Shown: positions 641-22,541 of the stretch, in pieces
How positions within the stretch are numbered: position 1 is the first letter of the stretch
How the letters are laid out: every line of letters begins with the position of its first letter
Source: a virus
Lineage: Duplodnaviria > Heunggongvirae > Uroviricota > Caudoviricetes
IMG/VR virus record: IMGVR_UViG_2909246061_000004
Length of the DNA stretch: 25,849 nt
Reading direction: 5' to 3' (one strand)
Made by a program: the position numbers and the translations under genes
The notes under the pieces: generated by a model
What the model saw: the letters and a program-made list of their open reading frames with translations, nothing else
Database searches by the model: none
Told to the model about the DNA's origin: nothing

Positions 641-696
641 AAACGGCGGCAGAGCAGTCACGGAGTAAAACTGATACCGCCAAACGTCACCAGAAA
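641..696 (-). ncRNA. dicF: DicF small regulatory RNA with 3' terminator U-tract
   Basis: Reverse complement of 645..696 reads TTTCTGGTGACGTTTGGCGGTATCAGTTTTACTCCGTGACTGCTCTGCCGCC, matching remembered DicF, followed by TTTTTAAAG on the minus strand. Confidence 0.8.
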
Positions 697-3232: not shown

Positions 3233-4303
3233 ATGGCTAACGCCTGGCTCAGATTATGGCATGACATGCCAAATGACCCTAAGTGGCGAACAATTGCCAG
3301 GGTGTCAGGGCAGCCAATTGCAACAGTGATGGCAGTGTATATCCACCTCTTGGTGAGCGCGTCACGAAATGTCACGCGAGGTCACATTGATGTCACGACA
3401 GAAGATTTGGCAAGTGCGCTCGACGTGACAGAAGAGGTAATTGATTCAATTTTGCAGACGATGCAGGGGCGGGTACTTGATAGTGATTTAATCACTGGAT
3501 GGGAAAAACGCCAGGTGCTTAAAGAGGACAACGGCAATATTTCGCAAACCGCAAAATCTCCTGCAGAGCGCAAGAGGGCGCAGCGAGAGAGGGAAAGAAA
3601 GCGGGAACAAAATGGCGATTGTCACGGCGCGTCACGAAATGTCACGCACATGTCACGACGAGTCACGACAGATAAAGATACAGATAAAGATACAGATCAA
3701 GAAGATCAAAACACTATGGTCCATGGCGTAAAAAACGCCACGAACCAGGCAGGGGATGTTCAGACCGTCAATCTTGGTCAGCCAGCAGGCACGACACCGG
3801 AAGCCGATTCAGCGTATGCGCTGAAAGCCGATTCGGGCGCTGTGCAGCAGGTGATGACCGCAAGGCCGGAGCAATCACACCAACTGCAGCAGCCCGAAGC
3901 CGATTCCGCCATTCAGCGGGAAGCCTATCCGGTAGTCCCGGAAAACACCGGGCAGTCTGTGGGACGAGTGGATTATCCGGATGTGTTCGAACAGGTCTGG
4001 CGGGAGTACCCGTTGCGTGCCGGAGCAAACCCGAAGAAATCCGCTTTCAGTGCCTGGAAGGCCAGATTACGCGAGGGGGTGCCACCAGAGGCCATGCTGG
4101 ATGGCGTGAGGCGTTACGCAAGATACTTGGCGGCTACCGGGAAAACGGGAACGGAATTTGTTCAGCGAGCGACGACGTTTTTTGGACCGGACCGGAATTT
4201 TGAGAACCCCTGGTTGCTCCCGGTAAGCGGCACGAACAACCAGCGTTGTGTGAATCATATTTCTGAACCGGATAACGAAATTCCGCCGGGCTTCAGGGGG
4301 TAA
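3233..4303 (+). CDS. Phage replication initiation protein (O-like) with iterons inside its coding sequence
   Basis: ATG at 3233 with AGAGGTG RBS; N-terminus MANAWLRLWHDMPNDPKWRTIARVSG typical of prophage replication proteins; phased GTCACG repeats inside the gene. Confidence 0.55.
   Translation: MANAWLRLWHDMPNDPKWRTIARVSGQPIATVMAVYIHLLVSASRNVTRGHIDVTTEDLASALDVTEEVIDSILQTMQGRVLDSDLITGWEKRQVLKEDNGNISQTAKSPAERKRAQRERERKREQNGDCHGASRNVTHMSRRVTTDKDTDKDTDQEDQNTMVHGVKNATNQAGDVQTVNLGQPAGTTPEADSAYALKADSGAVQQVMTARPEQSHQLQQPEADSAIQREAYPVVPENTGQSVGRVDYPDVFEQVWREYPLRAGANPKKSAFSAWKARLREGVPPEAMLDGVRRYARYLAATGKTGTEFVQRATTFFGPDRNFENPWLLPVSGTNNQRCVNHISEPDNEIPPGFRG
3361..3397 (+). repeat. Iteron cluster 1: four GTCAC(G/A) copies at ~10-bp spacing
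   Basis: GTCACGAAATGTCACGCGAGGTCACATTGATGTCACG read directly. Confidence 0.5.
3621..3666 (+). repeat. Iteron cluster 2: five GTCACG copies at exact 10-bp spacing, followed by a GATAAAGATACA tandem duplication
   Basis: GTCACGGCGCGTCACGAAATGTCACGCACATGTCACGACGAGTCACG read directly. Confidence 0.55.
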
Positions 4304-4343
4304 GTATTAATTTCTGGTCATGAGGTAATTTTCAGGAGGGCTT

Positions 4344-4766
4344 GTGGCAAAAGTTTTTACACAAGAAGAGCGGGAAAAAATTAAAGGGCAGGTTGTTGAA
4401 CTCGTACGCCAGAGTGGGCGCGAGACGTTACGACAACTGGAAACTAAAACTGGGGCAACAAGATATCTGATGAGCGTTCTGGCCAGAGAGCTGGTTGCCA
4501 GTGGCGATGTATACAACTCTGGTTACGGGTTATTCCCGTCTGAACAGGCGCGTAAGGACTGGCAAAATGCCCGTAAAAAGCTCTCAAGGGCAAAGCTGAA
4601 GAAACCATCTGCGGTTGATCCGGACCTTATCTGGTCATTACCTGATGGAGAAATACGTCGTTACGACAGGCGTCATAATATGATTTGTACTGAGTGTCGT
4701 AAAAGCGAAGTTATGCAGCGCATATTGTCGTTTTATCAGGGGGATGTTCGGTATTTATTGAAGTGA
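4344..4766 (+). CDS. Hypothetical protein (140 aa), GTG start
   Basis: GTG at 4344 with AGGAGG 5 nt upstream; no family recognised. Confidence 0.45.
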   Translation: MAKVFTQEEREKIKGQVVELVRQSGRETLRQLETKTGATRYLMSVLARELVASGDVYNSGYGLFPSEQARKDWQNARKKLSRAKLKKPSAVDPDLIWSLPDGEIRRYDRRHNMICTECRKSEVMQRILSFYQGDVRYLLK

Positions 4767-6050
4767 CGAGATTAAAGTGCATTAGTTCAGATGCAAATTG
4801 ACATTTTGTGGCACAGGGTAGAGCTAGCGTGGTTGTCCGCTTTGTGCCAACAGCGGACATTATGGAAGGTCAGAGTTAAAGATTAAAATGGGATGCTGTG
4901 TGTTTTCTCCAGGTTTTGCTCTATACCTTTCGGGATACTCCACCGACAGAATACGAAAATCAACATTATCAACGGCTCGAAGTGTCTAGATTATCCATGG
5001 CAATTCATGGGAAATCCCATCCAACGGCTTATGCTTCATGTTGCTTTTTGAGATCGCTTCTAGCATAGCTCCACTCAATAATGTTGTCGGGTCGTTGCTG
5101 ATCGAAAAGGATACGGGATTCAATACCATTACCTAAAAAGCTGGTATTCCCATCTACGTAAGAAGCTATCCCTTGTGAACCAACACGAAGAATATTTTCT
5201 AATGGCTGTTTTGTTCTTGCTGCATCGCTAAGGAGATATAAACCCGGGTACGTTTTGTTAGCACGGTGAAAAAAAAGTTCATTGTCAAAACACATGACGA
5301 TGATTATTTGTCCCGACATGAGATCGGAGAGCATTTCAGTTGGCAGATGCAAACTCATAAATGGTCGAGACAAAGGGTCAAAGAATGAATCATTTATATT
5401 CACAACAGGGCTTTTTATACCGAGACTATCCATCCATCCATTGAAGGCAACAAAGCCCATTTCAGAATCACGGTACATACCTAAGAACAAACATTCATCA
5501 ATAGTATCAATTGCCCAATTTTTTCCTCCGCGAATAATCTCCCACATTTTAACTAAGCGGTGGGTATAAAATTCAGACGGATGATCTATCTCATTGATTT
5601 TAACTTTAGACTGATGAAAGTTGTCAAAGCCCTCGCCAGTATTAATCGCCTCCAGAACATTCATGCCACGAATGATTTGCCTTTTTATGCGATTAAATTG
5701 CTTAACATCATTATCAGGCATATTGTTAATGAAGTTTTCTTCAAAGTGCGGACATTCTGAGATAACAGAAAATTCAGCAGCTTCATAAAGCTCATTATTC
5801 TTTTCACCTGTTTTAACTTCCACGAGCTGGAAGCCATCCAGTAGATTAAAGGTGACTAAATCTCCCACATGAACAAATGTGCTCATGTCAGAGACAATCG
5901 CTACGGAGTGTTTGTCCTGGTTGATAAGATCGGCTGCGACCATAGAATCAATTATGTTATCTTCTGATAGATTGTCATTGCTTGCATTAATAGGTAAACG
6001 CCGCAAACTAGAGTGTTCTTCATCAAGAATGCTCCAAATTATTGAGTCAA

Positions 6051-6059
6051 TACAACGGC
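6051..6059. repeat. IS1 target-site duplication, left copy (TACAACGGC)
   Basis: Identical 9-mer at 6828..6836 directly flanking the other IS1 end. Confidence 0.85.
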
Positions 6060-6074
6060 GGTAATGACTCCAAC

Positions 6075-6578
6075 TTATTGATAGTGTTTTATGTTCAGAT
6101 AATGCCCGATGACTTTGTCATGCAGCTCCACCGATTTTGAGAACGACAGCGACTTCCGTCCCAGCCGTGCCAGGTGCTGCCTCAGATTCAGGTTATGCCG
6201 CTCAATTCGCTGCGTATATCGCTTGCTGATTACGTGCAGCTTTCCCTTCAGGCGGGATTCATACAGCGGCCAGCCATCCGTCATCCATATCACCACGTCA
6301 AAGGGTGACAGCAGGCTCATAAGACGCCCCAGCGTCGCCATAGTGCGTTCACCGAATACGTGCGCAACAACCGTCTTCCGGAGCCTGTCATACGCGTAAA
6401 ACAGCCAGCGCTGGCGCGATTTAGCCCCGACATAGCCCCACTGTTCGTCCATTTCCGCGCAGACGATGACGTCACTGCCCGGCTGTATGCGCGAGGTTAC
6501 CGACTGCGGCCTGAGTTTTTTAAATGGCGGAAAATCGTGTTGAGGCCAACGCCCATAATGCGGGCGGTTGCCCGGCAT
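6075..6578 (-). CDS. insB: IS1 InsB (transposase C-terminal frame)
   Basis: 167-aa ORF matching remembered IS1 InsB. Confidence 0.9.
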
Positions 6579-6772
6579 CCAACGCCATTCATGGCCATAT
6601 CAATGATTTTCTGGTGCGTACCGGGTTGAGAAGCGGTGTAAGTGAACTGCAGTTGCCATGTTTTACGGCAGTGAGAGCAGAGATAGCGCTGATGTCCGGC
6701 AGTGCTTTTGCCGTTACGCACCACCCCGTCAGTAGCTGAACAGGAGGGACAGCTGATAGAAACAGAAGCCAC
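6497..6772 (-). CDS. insA: IS1 InsA
   Basis: 91-aa [43 protein letters not shown]... matching remembered IS1 InsA. Confidence 0.9.
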
Positions 6773-6827
6773 TGGAGCACCTCAAAAACACCATCATACA
6801 CTAAATCAGTAAGTTGGCAGCATCACC

Positions 6828-6836
6828 TACAACGGC
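6828..6836. repeat. IS1 target-site duplication, right copy (TACAACGGC)
   Basis: Identical to 6051..6059. Confidence 0.85.
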
Positions 6837-7286
6837 GAAGAATAAGAATTTCAAATTTTTTTAAACTTATTTCATCAATACACTTTTCTTTATTTTCTTT
6901 ATCCTTGTTTCGATGGTGCTCTTTTTTTTCAGTTTTCAATCTTTTTATATCTCTCAGCCGAATAATAATCTCAAAAGATATGATTTTTTGTGAGTCTTTC
7001 CAATTTTTGAGACAGGTTTCATACTCTGCAAGAAAATCCTCATCATTGGAAGGTAGTTCTTGAATTGGATTCCCTCCCCTTATCATTTTGGCAAGTGCAT
7101 GCATTAAAGATACATAATGAGGTGATAAAATTGTCCAAAACTTCCTAAACGGTTTGTACTTTTCAAGAAAAGTTGACTCATCAGTATAATTCATCATAAC
7201 CAAACCTCATTCCTCTTATCTATTTTCCTCAAGGTATAAAATACCAGCCTTTTTTACATAATTATAGTTATAATATGAAGTCTCAT

Positions 7287-8156
7287 TCAGATATCTTCAT
7301 ACTGTACGTAAGAAATATTTGAGCCTCTGATACCATAATCTTCTAAACTGCCTGATTTTTTCTCACCTCTATATAAAGCAACTATCCATCGAGCATTTTC
7401 TTGGATGCTTTTATTTATTTCAGTAAAGTATTCACCGTCAACTTCGGCGAGCGAGTGGCCTAAAACGATGACCTCGTCCACATTTTTAAGCGATGAGAAA
7501 AAAACGTTTTCTTCTTTAATTATGTCTTCGCTGGGCTTGAATGTATTACCGAAGTATTCGTTTATTCTGTCGTATGCCTCTGCTATTCTTGTATCTTGAT
7601 CCGGTCCTATATATGGATTTAGTGACTTTTCCACCCTAAAACTATGACCAAGTATGAGATCGTCATCGTAACTACAATTGCCGTGAATATGTATGATTTG
7701 CTCGTCTGGAACGGCATAGATCTGCTGCAAGGTATTTGTATAATTAAATGAAAAATAGATGCTTTCTCTTGGTATGGGCGGGATGTATTGCTTAGGATTG
7801 TAAGCATCGGCTATGTTAATCCCTTTAACCCAATCAGCGAATTGCTCCTTCAAACGAGCTGACAGCATTTGTGTGATTTTATTTACTTCATATTGGTAAT
7901 CGTGATGATAAGCATCGCTCCAATCATCGGTATTGTATGAAGCCAAAAATATCTCACTGTTTTGAAGGATAAGCTCATAATCAATTTCACCTAAAGCATT
8001 TTCTAACTCATTCCACTCGTCCCCAGCAGGAATGTATTCTTCTATCGCGTCATATAGATCTTGGTCATTTTTTTCTACATACGACTTAAAGTGCTTGTAT
8101 CCTGTTGGTAAGCCATGACGCATGTCAAATCCATTTCCTATTATGTAAAGCCTCAT
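7287..8156 (-). CDS. AbiH-like abortive-infection protein (290 aa)
   Basis: Start at the ATG at 8156 with AAGGGA RBS 8 nt upstream; N-terminus MRLYIIGNGFDMRHGLPTGY carries the IGNGFD-x-HGL motif remembered for the AbiH family; AT-rich gene inside a prophage. Confidence 0.5.
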   Translation of the reverse strand: MRLYIIGNGFDMRHGLPTGYKHFKSYVEKNDQDLYDAIEEYIPAGDEWNELENALGEIDYELILQNSEIFLASYNTDDWSDAYHHDYQYEVNKITQMLSARLKEQFADWVKGINIADAYNPKQYIPPIPRESIYFSFNYTNTLQQIYAVPDEQIIHIHGNCSYDDDLILGHSFRVEKSLNPYIGPDQDTRIAEAYDRINEYFGNTFKPSEDIIKEENVFFSSLKNVDEVIVLGHSLAEVDGEYFTEINKSIQENARWIVALYRGEKKSGSLEDYGIRGSNISYVQYEDI

Positions 8157-8470
8157 TGTTTTTCCCTTAGTCGAATTGTATAAAAATACTAACATGGCCT
8201 GCTCCACGTTGACTACTATCCCCTCCTTTGAGTAATGCCTTCATCAGATGTAACAACATTTGCGAGCTTCCACAGTTCGCTCAAAGCGGACTAGAAGGTT
8301 AGCTTGCGTCGGACTTGGCGTATTTAAAGAAGTGCTGGTGGAGACTGGTTGTTGTGTTCCATTTCTACAGAACAAAATCACAGAAACTATACCCAATAGT
8401 TATATTGAATCAATGATGAGACAGCCTCATATTTATCAGGACTGGTGTACGTCCAATACAGGAGGTTGTC

Positions 8471-8560: not shown

Positions 8561-8771
8561 TTTTATATTGGCGAGGTGACGTGAGTTAAGTAGAATTGCT
8601 GCGGGTGCTTGAGGCTATCTGCCTCAGGCATGAACACCAAAGGCAGATAGAGAAAAGCCCCAGTTAACATTACGCGTCCTGCAAGACGCTTAACATTAAT
8701 CTGAGGCCAATTTCATGCTAGACACATGTAGGTTAGCCTCTTACGTGCCGAAAGGCAAGGAGAAGCAGGCT

Positions 8772-8927
8772 ATGAAGCAGCAAAAGGCGATGTTAATCGC
8801 CCTGATCGTCATCTGTTTAACCGTCATAGTGACGGCACTGGTAACGAGGAAAGACCTCTGCGAGGTACGAATCCGAACCGGCCAGACGGAGGTCGCTGTC
8901 TTCACAGCTTACGAACCTGAGGAGTAA
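8772..8927 (+). CDS. hokD: Hok-family type I toxin (51 aa), HokD/RelF-like
   Basis: MKQQKAMLIALIVICLTVIVTALVTRKDLCEVRIRTGQTEVAVFTAYEPEE matches remembered HokD; AAGGAG RBS; structured leader upstream and terminator downstream. Confidence 0.85.
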   Translation: MKQQKAMLIALIVICLTVIVTALVTRKDLCEVRIRTGQTEVAVFTAYEPEE

Positions 8928-15808: not shown

Positions 15809-16171
15809 GGTAATATTAAATCGGAACATTTACATCGCGGAATGTAAAATTTAAATAAAAAGGACTCTTCCATGAGCCAAAATTCCTGAAATCTTAAGGG
15901 TAAGATAAAAGGTCTTAATCAGAATGACACGTTATTATTAATAAATAAAGCTATTCTTTCATTGCTGTGTTTTTCTTTACAAAAGTAATCCTTGCTATGG
16001 GTGGTTAATCATGCGTTAATGGTGTTCTGGTTTGTTACAAATTTATCTGAAGCAGTCATTGTTATAATTTTATTATTTGTACCTCTTGAGATTTCCTTGT
16101 TGGTTTTTCTCTCTGATATTTTTTTTCGGACCATTCTGCCCAAGGGCTAATTTCTTCAAAAGGTAATAATT

Positions 16172-16384
16172 ATGTCTAACAAAATGACTGGTTTAGTGAA
16201 ATGGTTTAACCCTGAAAAAGGTTTTGGTTTCATCACGCCGAAAGATGGCAGCAAAGATGTGTTTGTCCATTTCTCAGCAATTCAGAGCAACGATTTCAAA
16301 ACATTAACTGAGAATCAGGAAGTTGAATTTGGTATTGAGAACGGACCTAAAGGTCCTGCCGCTGTTCATGTAGTGGCGCTTTGA
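16172..16384 (+). CDS. cspI: Cold-shock protein CspI
   Basis: [53 protein letters not shown]... matches remembered CspI; long AT-rich 5' leader typical of csp genes. Confidence 0.85.
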
Positions 16385-16591
16385 GGTAGACAATATTACA
16401 AACCATATTCACTTTAGATGCCCGTGTTGTCATGGTTCCCAGTATAGAACATCATCTTTTGATGTTTCTGACATGAATCCTTTCGGGGCAAAATGTATCT
16501 TTTGTAAATCAATGATGATTACATTTGATAATATTTCACAATACTTAAATGCCAGCCGTCTGTCGTTGGATTTAAAAAAGTGAAAATGAAG

Positions 16592-18832: not shown

Positions 18833-20383
18833 ATGGGTTTTTCATCAGCCCGAAATTTGGGAAGGGACATATCGGCAGGATTTTCCCCACCACGTCGCAT
18901 GCCGATTTCGGAGGCTGTTAAAAAATTCATGCGTGTTCCCAAGGGGGCTGGTAACTCGGTGCCATGGGATCCTGAACTGACACCCTACATCATTGAGCCC
19001 ATGAACTGCCTGGCATCGCGTGAATACGATGCGGTGATTTTTGTTGGTCCTGCGCGAACAGGGAAGACCATTGGTCTGATCGATGGATGGATTGTCTATA
19101 CCATCGTTTGCGATCCTTCGGACATGCTCGTTGTGCAGATGACCGAAGATAAGGCCCGCGAGCATTCTAAAAAGCGCCTCGACAGAACGTTCAGAAGCAG
19201 TGCGGCGGTAAAGAAAAGAATGAGTCCACGTCGTAACGACAATAATGTCCATGATAAGACGTTCAGGGATGGCTCGTTCCTTAAAATTGGTTGGCCCTCG
19301 GTAAACATTATGTCGTCGTCGGATTACCGGTTTGTCGCCTTAACCGATTACGACCGTTTTCCGGAGAATATCGACAGCGAGGGTGATGGTTTCTCCCTGG
19401 CCTCAAAACGTACCACCACATTTATGTCCGCCGGGATGACTCTGGTGGAGAGCTCGCCGGGACGTGACATCTGCGACAGCAAATGGCGACGTAAGTCGCC
19501 TCATGAAGCGCCACCGACGACTGGTATTCTTTCCCTTTACAATCGTGGTGACCGCCGCCGCTGGTACTGGTCATGTCCGCACTGCGGTGAATATTTTCAG
19601 CCAGCCATGGATGCCATGACCGGCTACCGTAATGAACCGGATCCCTTTAAAGCCAGTGAGGCGGCGCATCTACTTTGCCCGCACTGCAGCGGCATTATCA
19701 CTGCGGAGAAAAAGCGTGAGCTCAATAGTGCAGGAGTCTGGTTGCGTGAAGGTCAGGTCATTGATCGTAACGGCAACGTTTCCGGTGAACCGCGCCGCTC
19801 CCGTATCGCCAGTTTCTGGATGGAAGGGCCAGCTGCTGCGTATCAGACCTGGGCGCAACTGGTTTACAAATTACTGACTGCAGAACAGGAGTATGAAGCG
19901 ACAGGAAGCGAAGAAACACTCAGGGCGGTTATCAACACCGACTGGGGATTGCCTTATCTTCCTCGTGCCAGCATGGAGCAACGAAAAAGTGAACTGCTTG
20001 AGCAGCGGGCAGAGCTAGTTCCTTCCCGCAGTGTGCCGGATGGCGTTAATTTCCTTGTGGCGACAGTGGATGTGCAGGCGGGACGTCATCGCCGTTTTGT
20101 GGTTCAGGTAACGGGCTATGGCAGTCGTGGCGAACGCTGGATTATTGATCGTTACAACATCACGCAGTCATTGCGCAGTGACTGCGACGGGGAGAGCCAG
20201 CGAATTGATCCGGCCAGCTATCCGGAAGACTGGGATGTCCTGCTGACGGATGTTTTTCATAAAAGCTGGCCGCTGGCCTCCGATCCTTCTCAACAAATGC
20301 GACTGATGGCAATGGCGGTGGACTCCGGCGGTGAAGACGGGGTCACTGATACCGGCTGGCGAGGTTCTGATGGCAATTCTTGA
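18833..20383 (+). pseudogene. Terminase large subunit (lambda gpA-like), C-terminally truncated at ~516 codons
   Basis: AGGAGG RBS; CPHCG zinc-ribbon and gpA-like motifs; ends ...DSGGEDG where remembered lambda gpA (641 aa) continues; portal-like coding sequence follows in another frame. Confidence 0.65.
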
Positions 20384-20567
20384 TGATGTGATTGGCGTTT
20401 TTTCACCAGGATGGAAAGCGGCAAGGCTGCGTTCCCGTGCGGTGATCCAGGCTTATGAGGCCGTAAAAACGACGCGGACACACAAAGCCCGACGGGAGAA
20501 CCGAACTGCCGACCAGTTAAGCCAGTACGGGGCCGTGTCGTTACGTGAGCAGGCCCGTTATGGGTGA
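20370..20567 (+). pseudogene. Portal protein N-terminal fragment (about 65 codons)
   Basis: [52 protein letters not shown] resembles remembered lambda-family portal N-termini; frame ends after ~65 codons. Confidence 0.5.
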
Positions 20568-21966
20568 TCAGCAGCGGCAGCGATATCAGGTACAACTGAG
20601 TCTTCGCCAGAAATACCAGCAACAGCTGGAGCAGTTGAGGCGGGATAGTGAGCAGAAAGGGACATATAACACGGATGACTACAGAAAGGCCGAGCAGGCG
20701 CTGACGGAGAGCCTGAACCGACAACTGAATGAGAATCGCCGTTACTGGCAACAGCTTGAAGTTGTGCAGGGTAACTGGAAAAACGGAGTCCTGCGTGCAT
20801 TTCAGGATTTTACCGTGGATGCAGACAATACGGCAGGAACAGCAGAACAGGTGTTCTCATCAGCCTTCAGCAACATGGGAAATGGCCTGGCAACTTTTGT
20901 CACTACCGGCAAACTCAACTTCAAATCCTTCACCTCTTCGGTGCTGTCAGATATGGCGAAAATCCTGGCGCAGGCAACCATGATGAAATCGATAAAAGGG
21001 ATTGGCAGTGTAACCGCGCTGACAGACAATACGCAGGGGGCAACAGGTCTTGAGTTATACGAGGTGTATAACAACGGATATCCAACAGCGTATGGAAATA
21101 TCATTCACCTGAAAGGGATGACAGCCGTTGGCGAAGGTGAGTTACTCATCGGCTGGAGTGGTACAAGCGGTGCTCATGCTCCGGCATTTATTCGTTCACG
21201 ACGGGATACGACCGACGCAAACTGGTCGCCGTGGGCGCAGCTTTACACCTCGGCTCATCCTCCTGCAGAGTTTTATCCAGTCGGTGCACCAATCCCGTGG
21301 CCATCAGATACCGTTCCGTCTGGCTATGCCCTGATGCAGGGGCAGACTTTTGACAAATCTGCATACCCGAAACTTGCAGCGGCTTATCCGTCAGGCGTGA
21401 TCCCTGATATGCGTGGCTGGACGATTAAGGGCAAACCCGCCAGTGGTCGTGCCGTATTGTCTCAGGAACAGGACGGCATTAAATCGCACACCCACAGCGC
21501 CAGCGCATCCAGTACGGATTTGGGGACGAAAAACACATCGTCGTTTGATTACGGAACCAAATCCACGAATAACACCGGGGCGCATACCCATAGTATTAGC
21601 GGGACTGCAAATAGTGCCGGTGCGCACCAACACAAGAGTTCCGGTGCATTTGGTGGCACGAACACGAGCATTTTCCCTAATGGTTATACCGCGATTTCAA
21701 ATCTAAGCGCGGGGATTATGAGCACAACAAGCGGTAGTGGCCAGACTCGTAATGCAGGGAAGACATCATCAGATGGTGCTCATACCCACTCGCTGTCCGG
21801 CACTGCTGCAAGCGCAGGCGCACATGCACATACTGTCGGTATTGGTGCTCATACGCACTCCGTTGCGATTGGTTCACATGGACACACCATCACCGTTAAC
21901 GCTGCTGGTAACGCGGAAAACACCGTCAAAAACATCGCATTTAACTATATTGTGAGGCTTGCATAA
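20545..21966 (+). CDS. Side tail-fibre protein with a probably unrelated coiled-coil N-terminus (chimeric)
   Basis: C-terminal half carries repeated G-A-H-x-H-S/T motifs and matches remembered Stf C-terminal domains; starts 23 nt before the portal stub ends. Confidence 0.65.
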
Positions 21967-22541
21967 TGGCATTCAGAATGAGTGAACAACCACAGACCAT
22001 AAAAATTTATAATCTGCTGGCCGGAACTAATGAATTTATTGGTGAAGGTGACGCATATATTCCGCCTCATACAGGTCTGCCAGCAAACAGTACCGATATT
22101 GCACCGCCAGATATTCCGGCAGGCTTCGTGGCTGTTTTCAACAGTGATGAGGCATCGTGGCATCTCGTTGAAGATCATCGGGGAAAAACCGTCTATGACG
22201 TGGCTTCCGGCGACGCGTTATTTATTTCTGAACTCGGTCCGTTACCGGAAAATGTTACCTGGTTATCGCCGGAAGGGGAGTTTCAGAAGTGGAACGGCAC
22301 AGCCTGGGTGAAGGATACGGAAGCAGAAAAACTGTTCCGGATCCGGGAGGCGGAAGAAACAAAAAACAACCTGATGCAGGTAGCCAGTGAGCATATTGCG
22401 CCGCTTCAGGATGCTGCAGATCTGGAAATTGCAACGGAGGAAGAAATCTCGTTGCTGGAAGCATGGAAAAAGTATCGGGTATTGCTGAACCGTGTTGATA
22501 CGTCAACTGCACAGGATATTGAATGGCCAGCACTGCCGTAG
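21966..22541 (+). CDS. Tail-fibre assembly protein Tfa
   Basis: [43 protein letters not shown]... typical Tfa; its start overlaps the tail-fibre stop by 1 nt. Confidence 0.8.

Follow-up and report, generated by a model that had tools for sequence, protein, structure and literature searches.

An IS1 element interrupts a gene that lies directly downstream of abiH in an Escherichia coli prophage (IMG/VR record IMGVR_UViG_2909246061_000004; the whole stretch analysed, 25,849 nucleotides, is called the window here). The locus raises the question of whether a single gene was split, what became of its two parts, and whether the loss was selected or came about by chance. The reading to which we give a probability of about 0.88 is that a young IS1 insertion created a simple loss-of-function allele, with a chance event in a dispensable region of the prophage as its most economical cause. 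Features are listed in Table 1.

The window corresponds to a defective Qin-like lambdoid prophage at ydfJ. The prophage carries dicB, DicF, ydfA, a replication module, hokD/sok, ydfU, Q and lysis genes. It is regarded as defective because the large terminase, portal and tape-measure genes (18833-21966) are truncated and fused remnants, which are pseudogenes in the annotation of strain PSS-10. The two-gene abiH module sits between the replication genes and hokD, and the disrupted gene is its distal member, on the minus strand. Four Rfam families matched the window above their gathering scores: the sok antitoxin RNA beside hokD, the DicF sRNA, a cspA-type thermoregulator upstream of cspI, and IS009 RNA.

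Table 1. Coordinates of features in the window and of insertion sequence damage at related loci
Feature	Position	Strand	Remarks
Target-site duplication, copy 1, TACAACGGC	6051..6059	.	single copy at the empty site of ECCWS199
IS1 (IS1B-like), complete, 768 bp	6060..6827	-	53.5% GC; IRR end at 6060, IRL end and insA promoter at 6827
insA / insAB' transposase coding region	6075..6772	-	insA 6497-6772, insB' 6075-6578
A6C -1 frameshift motif in IS1	6515-6521	-	single AAAAAAC motif
Target-site duplication, copy 2, TACAACGGC	6828..6836	.	directly abuts the IS1 end
5' fragment of the disrupted gene	6823..7197	-	native start kept; PGAP CDS WP_233309033.1
3' remainder of the disrupted gene, residues 121/122-463	5029..6059	-	PGAP CDS WP_141094377.1; all family-invariant residues inside
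AbiH-family gene, intact	7287..8195	-	Pfam PF14253 E = 6.6e-69; PADLOC AbiH E = 1.3e-27
sok antitoxin RNA (Rfam)	8603-8777	+	
DicF sRNA (Rfam)	644-695	-	
cspA-type thermoregulator (Rfam)	16026-16411	+	
IS009 RNA (Rfam)	22309-22507	+	
ISVsa5 insertion in the same gene	4882-6220 of NZ_CP046009.1		E. coli 1919D62 (L014); abiH intact there
Loci showing IS damage to abiH (IS1-interrupted or IS3-cut)			L019 (20AR0192), L017 (F5656C1), L018 (ECONIH4)

The insertion and the gene that it interrupts

The element has all the hallmarks of the IS1 family. Its length is as expected (~768 bp), its termini are imperfect inverted repeats (GGTAATGACTCCAACTTA... / GGTGATGCTGCCAACTTA...) of about 23 bp starting with GGTRATG, and insA and insB' are both open and joined via the A6C -1 frameshift. 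The 9-mer TACAACGGC is present twice in the window and once in the empty site of strain ECCWS199. The first-pass annotation had described an IS1 with a perfect 9-bp target duplication, and this description was borne out by the exact copies that abut both ends of the element; a perfect 9-mer at both exact ends is expected by chance with a probability of about 4e-6. In the colinear RefSeq/PGAP record of PSS-10, the element is annotated as an IS1B-family transposase with a programmed frameshift and a joined CDS. The PSS-10 genome holds IS1 at no fewer than 38-40 places. One of these copies, 26 kb away near ydeJ, has a 9-bp duplication of its own and is identical to the window element at 767 of 768 positions. 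No unusual feature was seen in the window element, which shares with the IS1B-like copies of E. coli the size, the imperfect inverted repeats, the insA/A6C/insB' organization, the 9-bp duplication, an AT-rich target and a multicopy state in the host, and has one mismatch to the copy near ydeJ. IS1 favours AT-rich target DNA. Over 50 bp on either side of the target, the GC content is 28%, which is consistent with this preference; the values are 36.6% for the disrupted gene, 37.6% for abiH and 44.5% for the window.

When the element and one repeat were removed (6060-6836), ORF 6823..7203 was joined to ORF 5029..6006 in frame and without a stop. The restored minus-strand ORF has 463 codons from the ATG at 7197, which is the PGAP start, or 465 codons from a TTG at 7203. 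It had been proposed earlier that one gene of about 465 codons was hit at codon ~126. Retranslation of the junction showed neither a stop codon nor a frameshift, and the proposal of a single split gene holds. The position needs correction: the figure of ~126 is the length of the 5' ORF counted from the TTG, and in ATG numbering the duplication begins at base 2 of codon 121 and ends at base 1 of codon 124. The restored protein is 100% identical to WP_112911107.1, which E. coli ECCWS199 encodes in one 1392-bp CDS at its IS-free site, and the excised 2,924-bp locus differs from that of ECCWS199 by one synonymous mismatch. The same protein is annotated as one gene in approximately 60 other complete E. 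coli genomes, and the exact protein was found on 73 public contigs under the label 'hypothetical protein'. The empty site sought in related strains was thus present in many IS1-free genomes as a single uninterrupted 1392-bp CDS, and two separate genes were seen at the locus in none of the IS-free genomes examined. The notion of two originally distinct genes was rejected because the IS-free loci all hold one 1392-bp CDS and the relatives in other genera are 440-495 aa long.

The gene is carried by 66 of 5,426 complete E. coli genomes, and IS1 was found at codons 121-124 only in PSS-10. The window and PSS-10 are colinear, share the insertion and differ by 15 SNPs; the insertion was therefore inherited within a small lineage. 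With IS1 removed, the window differs from ECCWS199 by only 2 SNPs in 13.6 kb. As the allele occurs in one of 5,426 genomes and its flanks are nearly identical to the empty site, the insertion is real, young and limited to the PSS-10 lineage. The earlier suggestion of a recent event is upheld by this rarity, by the divergence from the empty site (1 nt in 2,924 and 2 nt in 13.6 kb), by the intact state of the IS1 and by its near-identity to the other copy. What was observed directly is the insertion with its duplication, the reading frame restored by excision, the presence of empty sites and how rare the allele is. An assembly artefact was rejected because the duplication is exact and the insertion is common to the window and the complete PSS-10 genome, in spite of the SNPs between them.

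Of the 15 SNPs that separate the window from PSS-10, ten are clustered at 3866-4443, in about 600 bp of the replisome-organizer gene. This cluster suggests a small recombination patch, and it shows that the PSS-10 assembly itself is not the origin of the window.

Fate of the two gene fragments and the question of selection

Because the duplication lies at codons 121-124, the disrupted allele encodes 123 native residues followed by Arg and a TGA stop codon inside the IRL of IS1. The stretch between the 5' fragment and abiH showed no terminator. In the 3' remainder, the frame coming from IS1 is closed, the first in-frame start is a TTG at 6006 (residue 139), and no Shine-Dalgarno-like motif precedes any of the in-frame starts. 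It had been asked whether the IS1 end provides an outward promoter for the 3' fragment. A consensus scan with a shuffle control gave a negative answer: no site points at the 3' fragment from the IRR end, and promoter-like sites in the region are no more common than in shuffled sequence. IS1 insertions are polar. Judging from the consensus scans, the 3' fragment is probably silent; weak transcription, or read-through from the insAB' message, is possible. From the closed frame, the starts that lack a Shine-Dalgarno motif and the absence of a facing promoter at the IRR end, we infer that the IS1 allele is null. The upstream abiH gene is intact and untouched by IS1, and its protein is identical to that of the ECCWS199 allele. 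The effect is confined to the 463-aa gene, since abiH is unchanged and no further gene follows in the transcription unit.

A weak match resembling a hybrid promoter was also seen on the plus strand at 6814-6843. It agrees at 9 of 12 positions and consists of TTGGCA in the IRL of IS1 and, after an 18-bp spacer, AAGAAT in the flanking DNA. The match points out of IS1, antisense to the 5' fragment and abiH, and is no better than chance in shuffled sequence.

On the favoured reading, the course of events is as follows. A resident IS1 transposed into codons 121-124 of the 463-codon gene, and the usual staggered cut of 9 bp followed by repair produced the duplication of TACAACGGC. Translation from the native start then ends after 123 residues and an Arg, with simple loss of function as the result, and the 3' two-thirds of the gene is stranded behind a polar element with no recognisable promoter or ribosome-binding site. 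The gene lost in this way was probably a phage-related accessory gene, possibly anti-phage, nuclease-like and able to work alone.

The insertion is not the only damage to this module. In strain 1919D62, the same gene carries an ISVsa5 (IS10-like, 1329 bp) at codon ~168-171 with a 9-bp duplication, TACGGAGTG. The abiH gene is interrupted by IS1 in four genomes, and in approximately 50 further genomes it is reduced to an IS3-truncated 5' piece, and deletion has removed the 463-aa gene together with the replication genes. The module composed of abiH and the 463-aa gene is an IS sink in the Qin-like prophage. IS1 and IS10 have been reported as the insertion sequences that predominate in the inactivation of cas genes and of 12 further defence systems, both in nature and in experiments (PMC10359306). 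The event described here belongs to this known phenomenon, since the same two elements, IS1 in the window and ISVsa5/IS10 in 1919D62, have entered one gene of a defence-type module. However, in contrast to the targets of Sheng et al. 2023 (PMC10359306), the recognised defence gene at this locus is the neighbouring abiH and not the gene that was struck.

An earlier suggestion was that the insertion possibly reflects selection against a toxic or costly defence gene. On this account, either the 463-aa protein by itself or its combination with AbiH would be costly or autotoxic or would block the uptake of useful mobile DNA, and an IS that destroys the gene would be favoured. The independent ISVsa5/IS10 insertion in the same gene argues for such an effect, as do the IS1 hits and IS3 truncations of abiH and the existing record of IS1/IS10 knock-outs of defence genes under selection (PMC10359306). 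The insertion has also persisted through some divergence, being common to the window and PSS-10. The repeated independent insertions in the module could thus reflect selection rather than chance. On the other hand, both genes are colinear, of exact length and at least 99.8% identical in 47 of the 60 carriers listed, which is unlike what is expected of a strongly toxic gene. The closest relatives have insertion sequences elsewhere in the same prophage (ISVsa5 in ECCWS199; IS3 in E3, EC21Z-063 and LR-27), and neutral accumulation of such elements is to be expected at an AT-rich site in a defective prophage. We therefore consider an adaptive knock-out unlikely. With an AT-rich site, a defective Qin-like prophage and a genome rich in IS1, neutral IS-driven decay explains the insertion equally well, and selection against a toxic or costly gene is not separable from it. 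Chance entry of an abundant element into an AT-rich and dispensable prophage region is the most economical explanation, in which selection is possible and unneeded. In itself, the IS1 insertion is a textbook event of an already known kind.

In the census of the module, a few copies differ by 1-4 bp in length. Some of these are in CM-accession assemblies, where the differences may be sequencing errors.

The interrupted protein and its family

The 463-aa protein had no match in Pfam, PADLOC, NCBIfam, PHROGs or PDB by phmmer and profile search. No component model of PADLOC-DB v2 matched it at E <= 0.1, and its relatives gave scattered single weak matches. Its close relatives form 48 clusters at 41-96% identity, with lengths of approximately 460-490 aa, in Enterobacterales and Aeromonas. 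An exhaustive profile search detected 685 representatives at E <= 1e-3, mostly of 440-490 aa, and the family numbers at least 685 clusters at 50% identity; no Pfam-annotated relatives were found when a set of 5.8 billion proteins was searched with the profile. Among the distant relatives, P0158, P0166, P0167 and P0186 (669-690 aa) have an extra N-terminal region of about 250 aa, and P0140 (569 aa) has one of about 100-150 aa; none of these extra regions has a Pfam or PADLOC match.

In 126 members with a median identity of about 23%, residues D178, D187, E201, K203, G205, R244 and Q248 are invariant. The acidic and lysine residues of the PD-(D/E)xK motif (D178, D187, E201 and K203) are therefore all conserved across these sequences. 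The AlphaFold model of the full protein is confident (pLDDT 82.6, pTM 0.82) and predicts a long helical hairpin at residues 52-132, near the end of which IS1 cuts, followed by an alpha/beta region in which D187 opens one strand and E201-x-K203 comes after the next. This predicted layout of residues is typical of PD-(D/E)xK nucleases. A Foldseek search returned nothing significant, and the alpha/beta part was left with no fold match. The PD-(D/E)xK proteins, including Shedu SduA (DUF4263/SduA_C) and type II restriction endonucleases, share with the 463-aa protein an invariant D178, a G-D187 and, 13 residues on, an E201-x-K203. In the 463-aa protein the motif lies on a predicted helix-strand-strand-strand-helix that, as in Shedu, has a variable helical region N-terminal to it. 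Sub-threshold matches to SduA_C, SduA and REase_II were given by a few distant members. The query itself had no match to SduA_C or to the PADLOC SduA model; of 71 relatives, two matched SduA_C (best E = 0.013) and one matched SduA (E = 0.0069). The protein thus appears to be nuclease-like by its motif and is assigned here to no family.

AbiH and other neighbours of the family

The upstream gene is a clear member of the AbiH family described from Lactococcus (PF14253; 233 bits against a gathering cut-off of 30.9, model positions 1-258 of 260). AbiH, an abortive-infection protein of lactococci, is predicted to be Sir2-like (PMC13064643). The lactococcal AbiH is a single-gene system (PMC13064643), whereas abiH is followed here by the conserved 463-aa ORF. 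The disrupted gene lies 86 bp downstream of abiH in the same orientation. The distance is 83-89 bp in the other E. coli-type loci, depending on the start codon, and in these loci the family gene is always behind abiH. A pair of abiH and a 463-aa gene was not described in the literature searched on the protein accessions and on E. coli AbiH two-gene systems.

In other genera the neighbours differ. The loci were sampled by a scan of genome contigs, which gave 3 loci, and from IMG/VR, which gave 36 useful loci. In Pantoea, Erwinia and Rahnella (L004-L007, L021-L022), the family gene is 16-18 bp behind a HEPN-type Abi_2 gene, and in Dickeya (L003) it is 17 bp behind a DUF3644 (HEPN) gene. In Morganella (L020), it is 19 bp behind an unannotated 315-aa gene by ORF call, or 97 bp from the called gene start. 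Gaps of 16-19 bp behind differing genes suggest a conserved module that recombined with different Abi effectors. The family gene stands alone in Aeromonas, Raoultella, Yersinia and many IMG/VR prophages, where it directly follows an integrase gene, follows P2 gpU or gpD, or has a Gabija-like pair next to it. The sites of the family are prophage hot spots: integrase-adjacent positions, the P2 tail-gene hot spot and the lambdoid stretch between the replication genes and Q. In the IMG/VR prophages L046-L050 (2976-5464), the family gene begins 2 bp past the stop codon of a tyrosine integrase gene or overlaps it by 4 bp, a typical position for prophage-end cargo.

This pattern fits a prophage hot-spot gene that is able to work by itself and at times follows one of several interchangeable Abi effectors. 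The name 'partner gene' given in the first-pass annotation is apt as far as adjacency and co-orientation with abiH are concerned; an exclusive pairing did not stand, because the homologues are often alone or behind other Abi genes. As a tentative suggestion, the disrupted gene may be the first member to be noticed of an undescribed and widespread family in prophage defence hot spots, and this family could be a new anti-phage nuclease that acts alone or as an add-on to Abi effectors, which we regard as possible though not probable.

The two genes might also form a pair similar to a toxin-antitoxin system, in which one of the two proteins, the 463-aa protein or the Sir2-like AbiH, neutralises or gates the other, so that the insertion would deregulate AbiH. 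In favour of this, the two genes share an orientation, no terminator-like site separates them, homologues lie 16-18 bp behind other effector-type Abi genes (HEPN Abi_2 and HEPN DUF3644), and AbiH is predicted to be Sir2-like (PMC13064643). However, each gene exists in broken form next to an intact copy of the other. The 463-aa gene is broken and abiH is intact in the window, PSS-10 and 1919D62, and abiH is broken and the 463-aa gene is intact in FUJ80154, 2021CK-00607, 20AR0192 and N4220121. As judged from the genes and not from their expression, loss of one member is thus tolerated with the other intact. These natural single knock-outs argue, short of proof, that neither gene is needed to tolerate the other, with the caveat that AbiH carries missense changes in PSS-10 and 1919D62, although not in the window. 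Many homologues have no Abi neighbour at all, and the co-occurrence of the AbiH and 463-aa families is not obligate. We regard such a pair as quite improbable.

The AbiH changes are private to each strain (G277D in PSS-10, L023; V239M in 1919D62, L014), and the window has the common allele. Their presence in both complete genomes with a broken 463-aa gene could be a coincidence or a secondary change.

It is very improbable that the insertion brought a gain of function, in which an IS1 end drives an N-terminally truncated protein (residues 139-463) that keeps the motif and has lost a regulatory helical domain: IS1 ends are able to form hybrid promoters, the 3' fragment holds every invariant residue and the insertion strips most of the predicted hairpin, but at the IRR end no promoter-like match faces the fragment and sites in the region are as numerous as in shuffled sequence, the frame from the polar element is closed ahead of a TTG that lacks a Shine-Dalgarno motif, and the isolated C-terminal fragment is modelled less well (pLDDT 76, pTM 0.61) than the full protein.

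The insertion adds one more natural case of IS1 and IS10 eroding phage-defence-associated accessory modules in cryptic prophages. In practice the allele can mark a small E. coli lineage and serve as a null that arose naturally. Its target is the more useful lead: a conserved and fully unannotated family that occupies prophage hot spots and is paired with varied Abi effectors. Intact alleles, alleles null for the 463-aa gene and alleles null for abiH exist naturally in nearly identical backgrounds. If the family does prove to be an anti-phage nuclease, the natural IS1/IS10 knock-outs and the abiH knock-outs would be ready near-isogenic strains.
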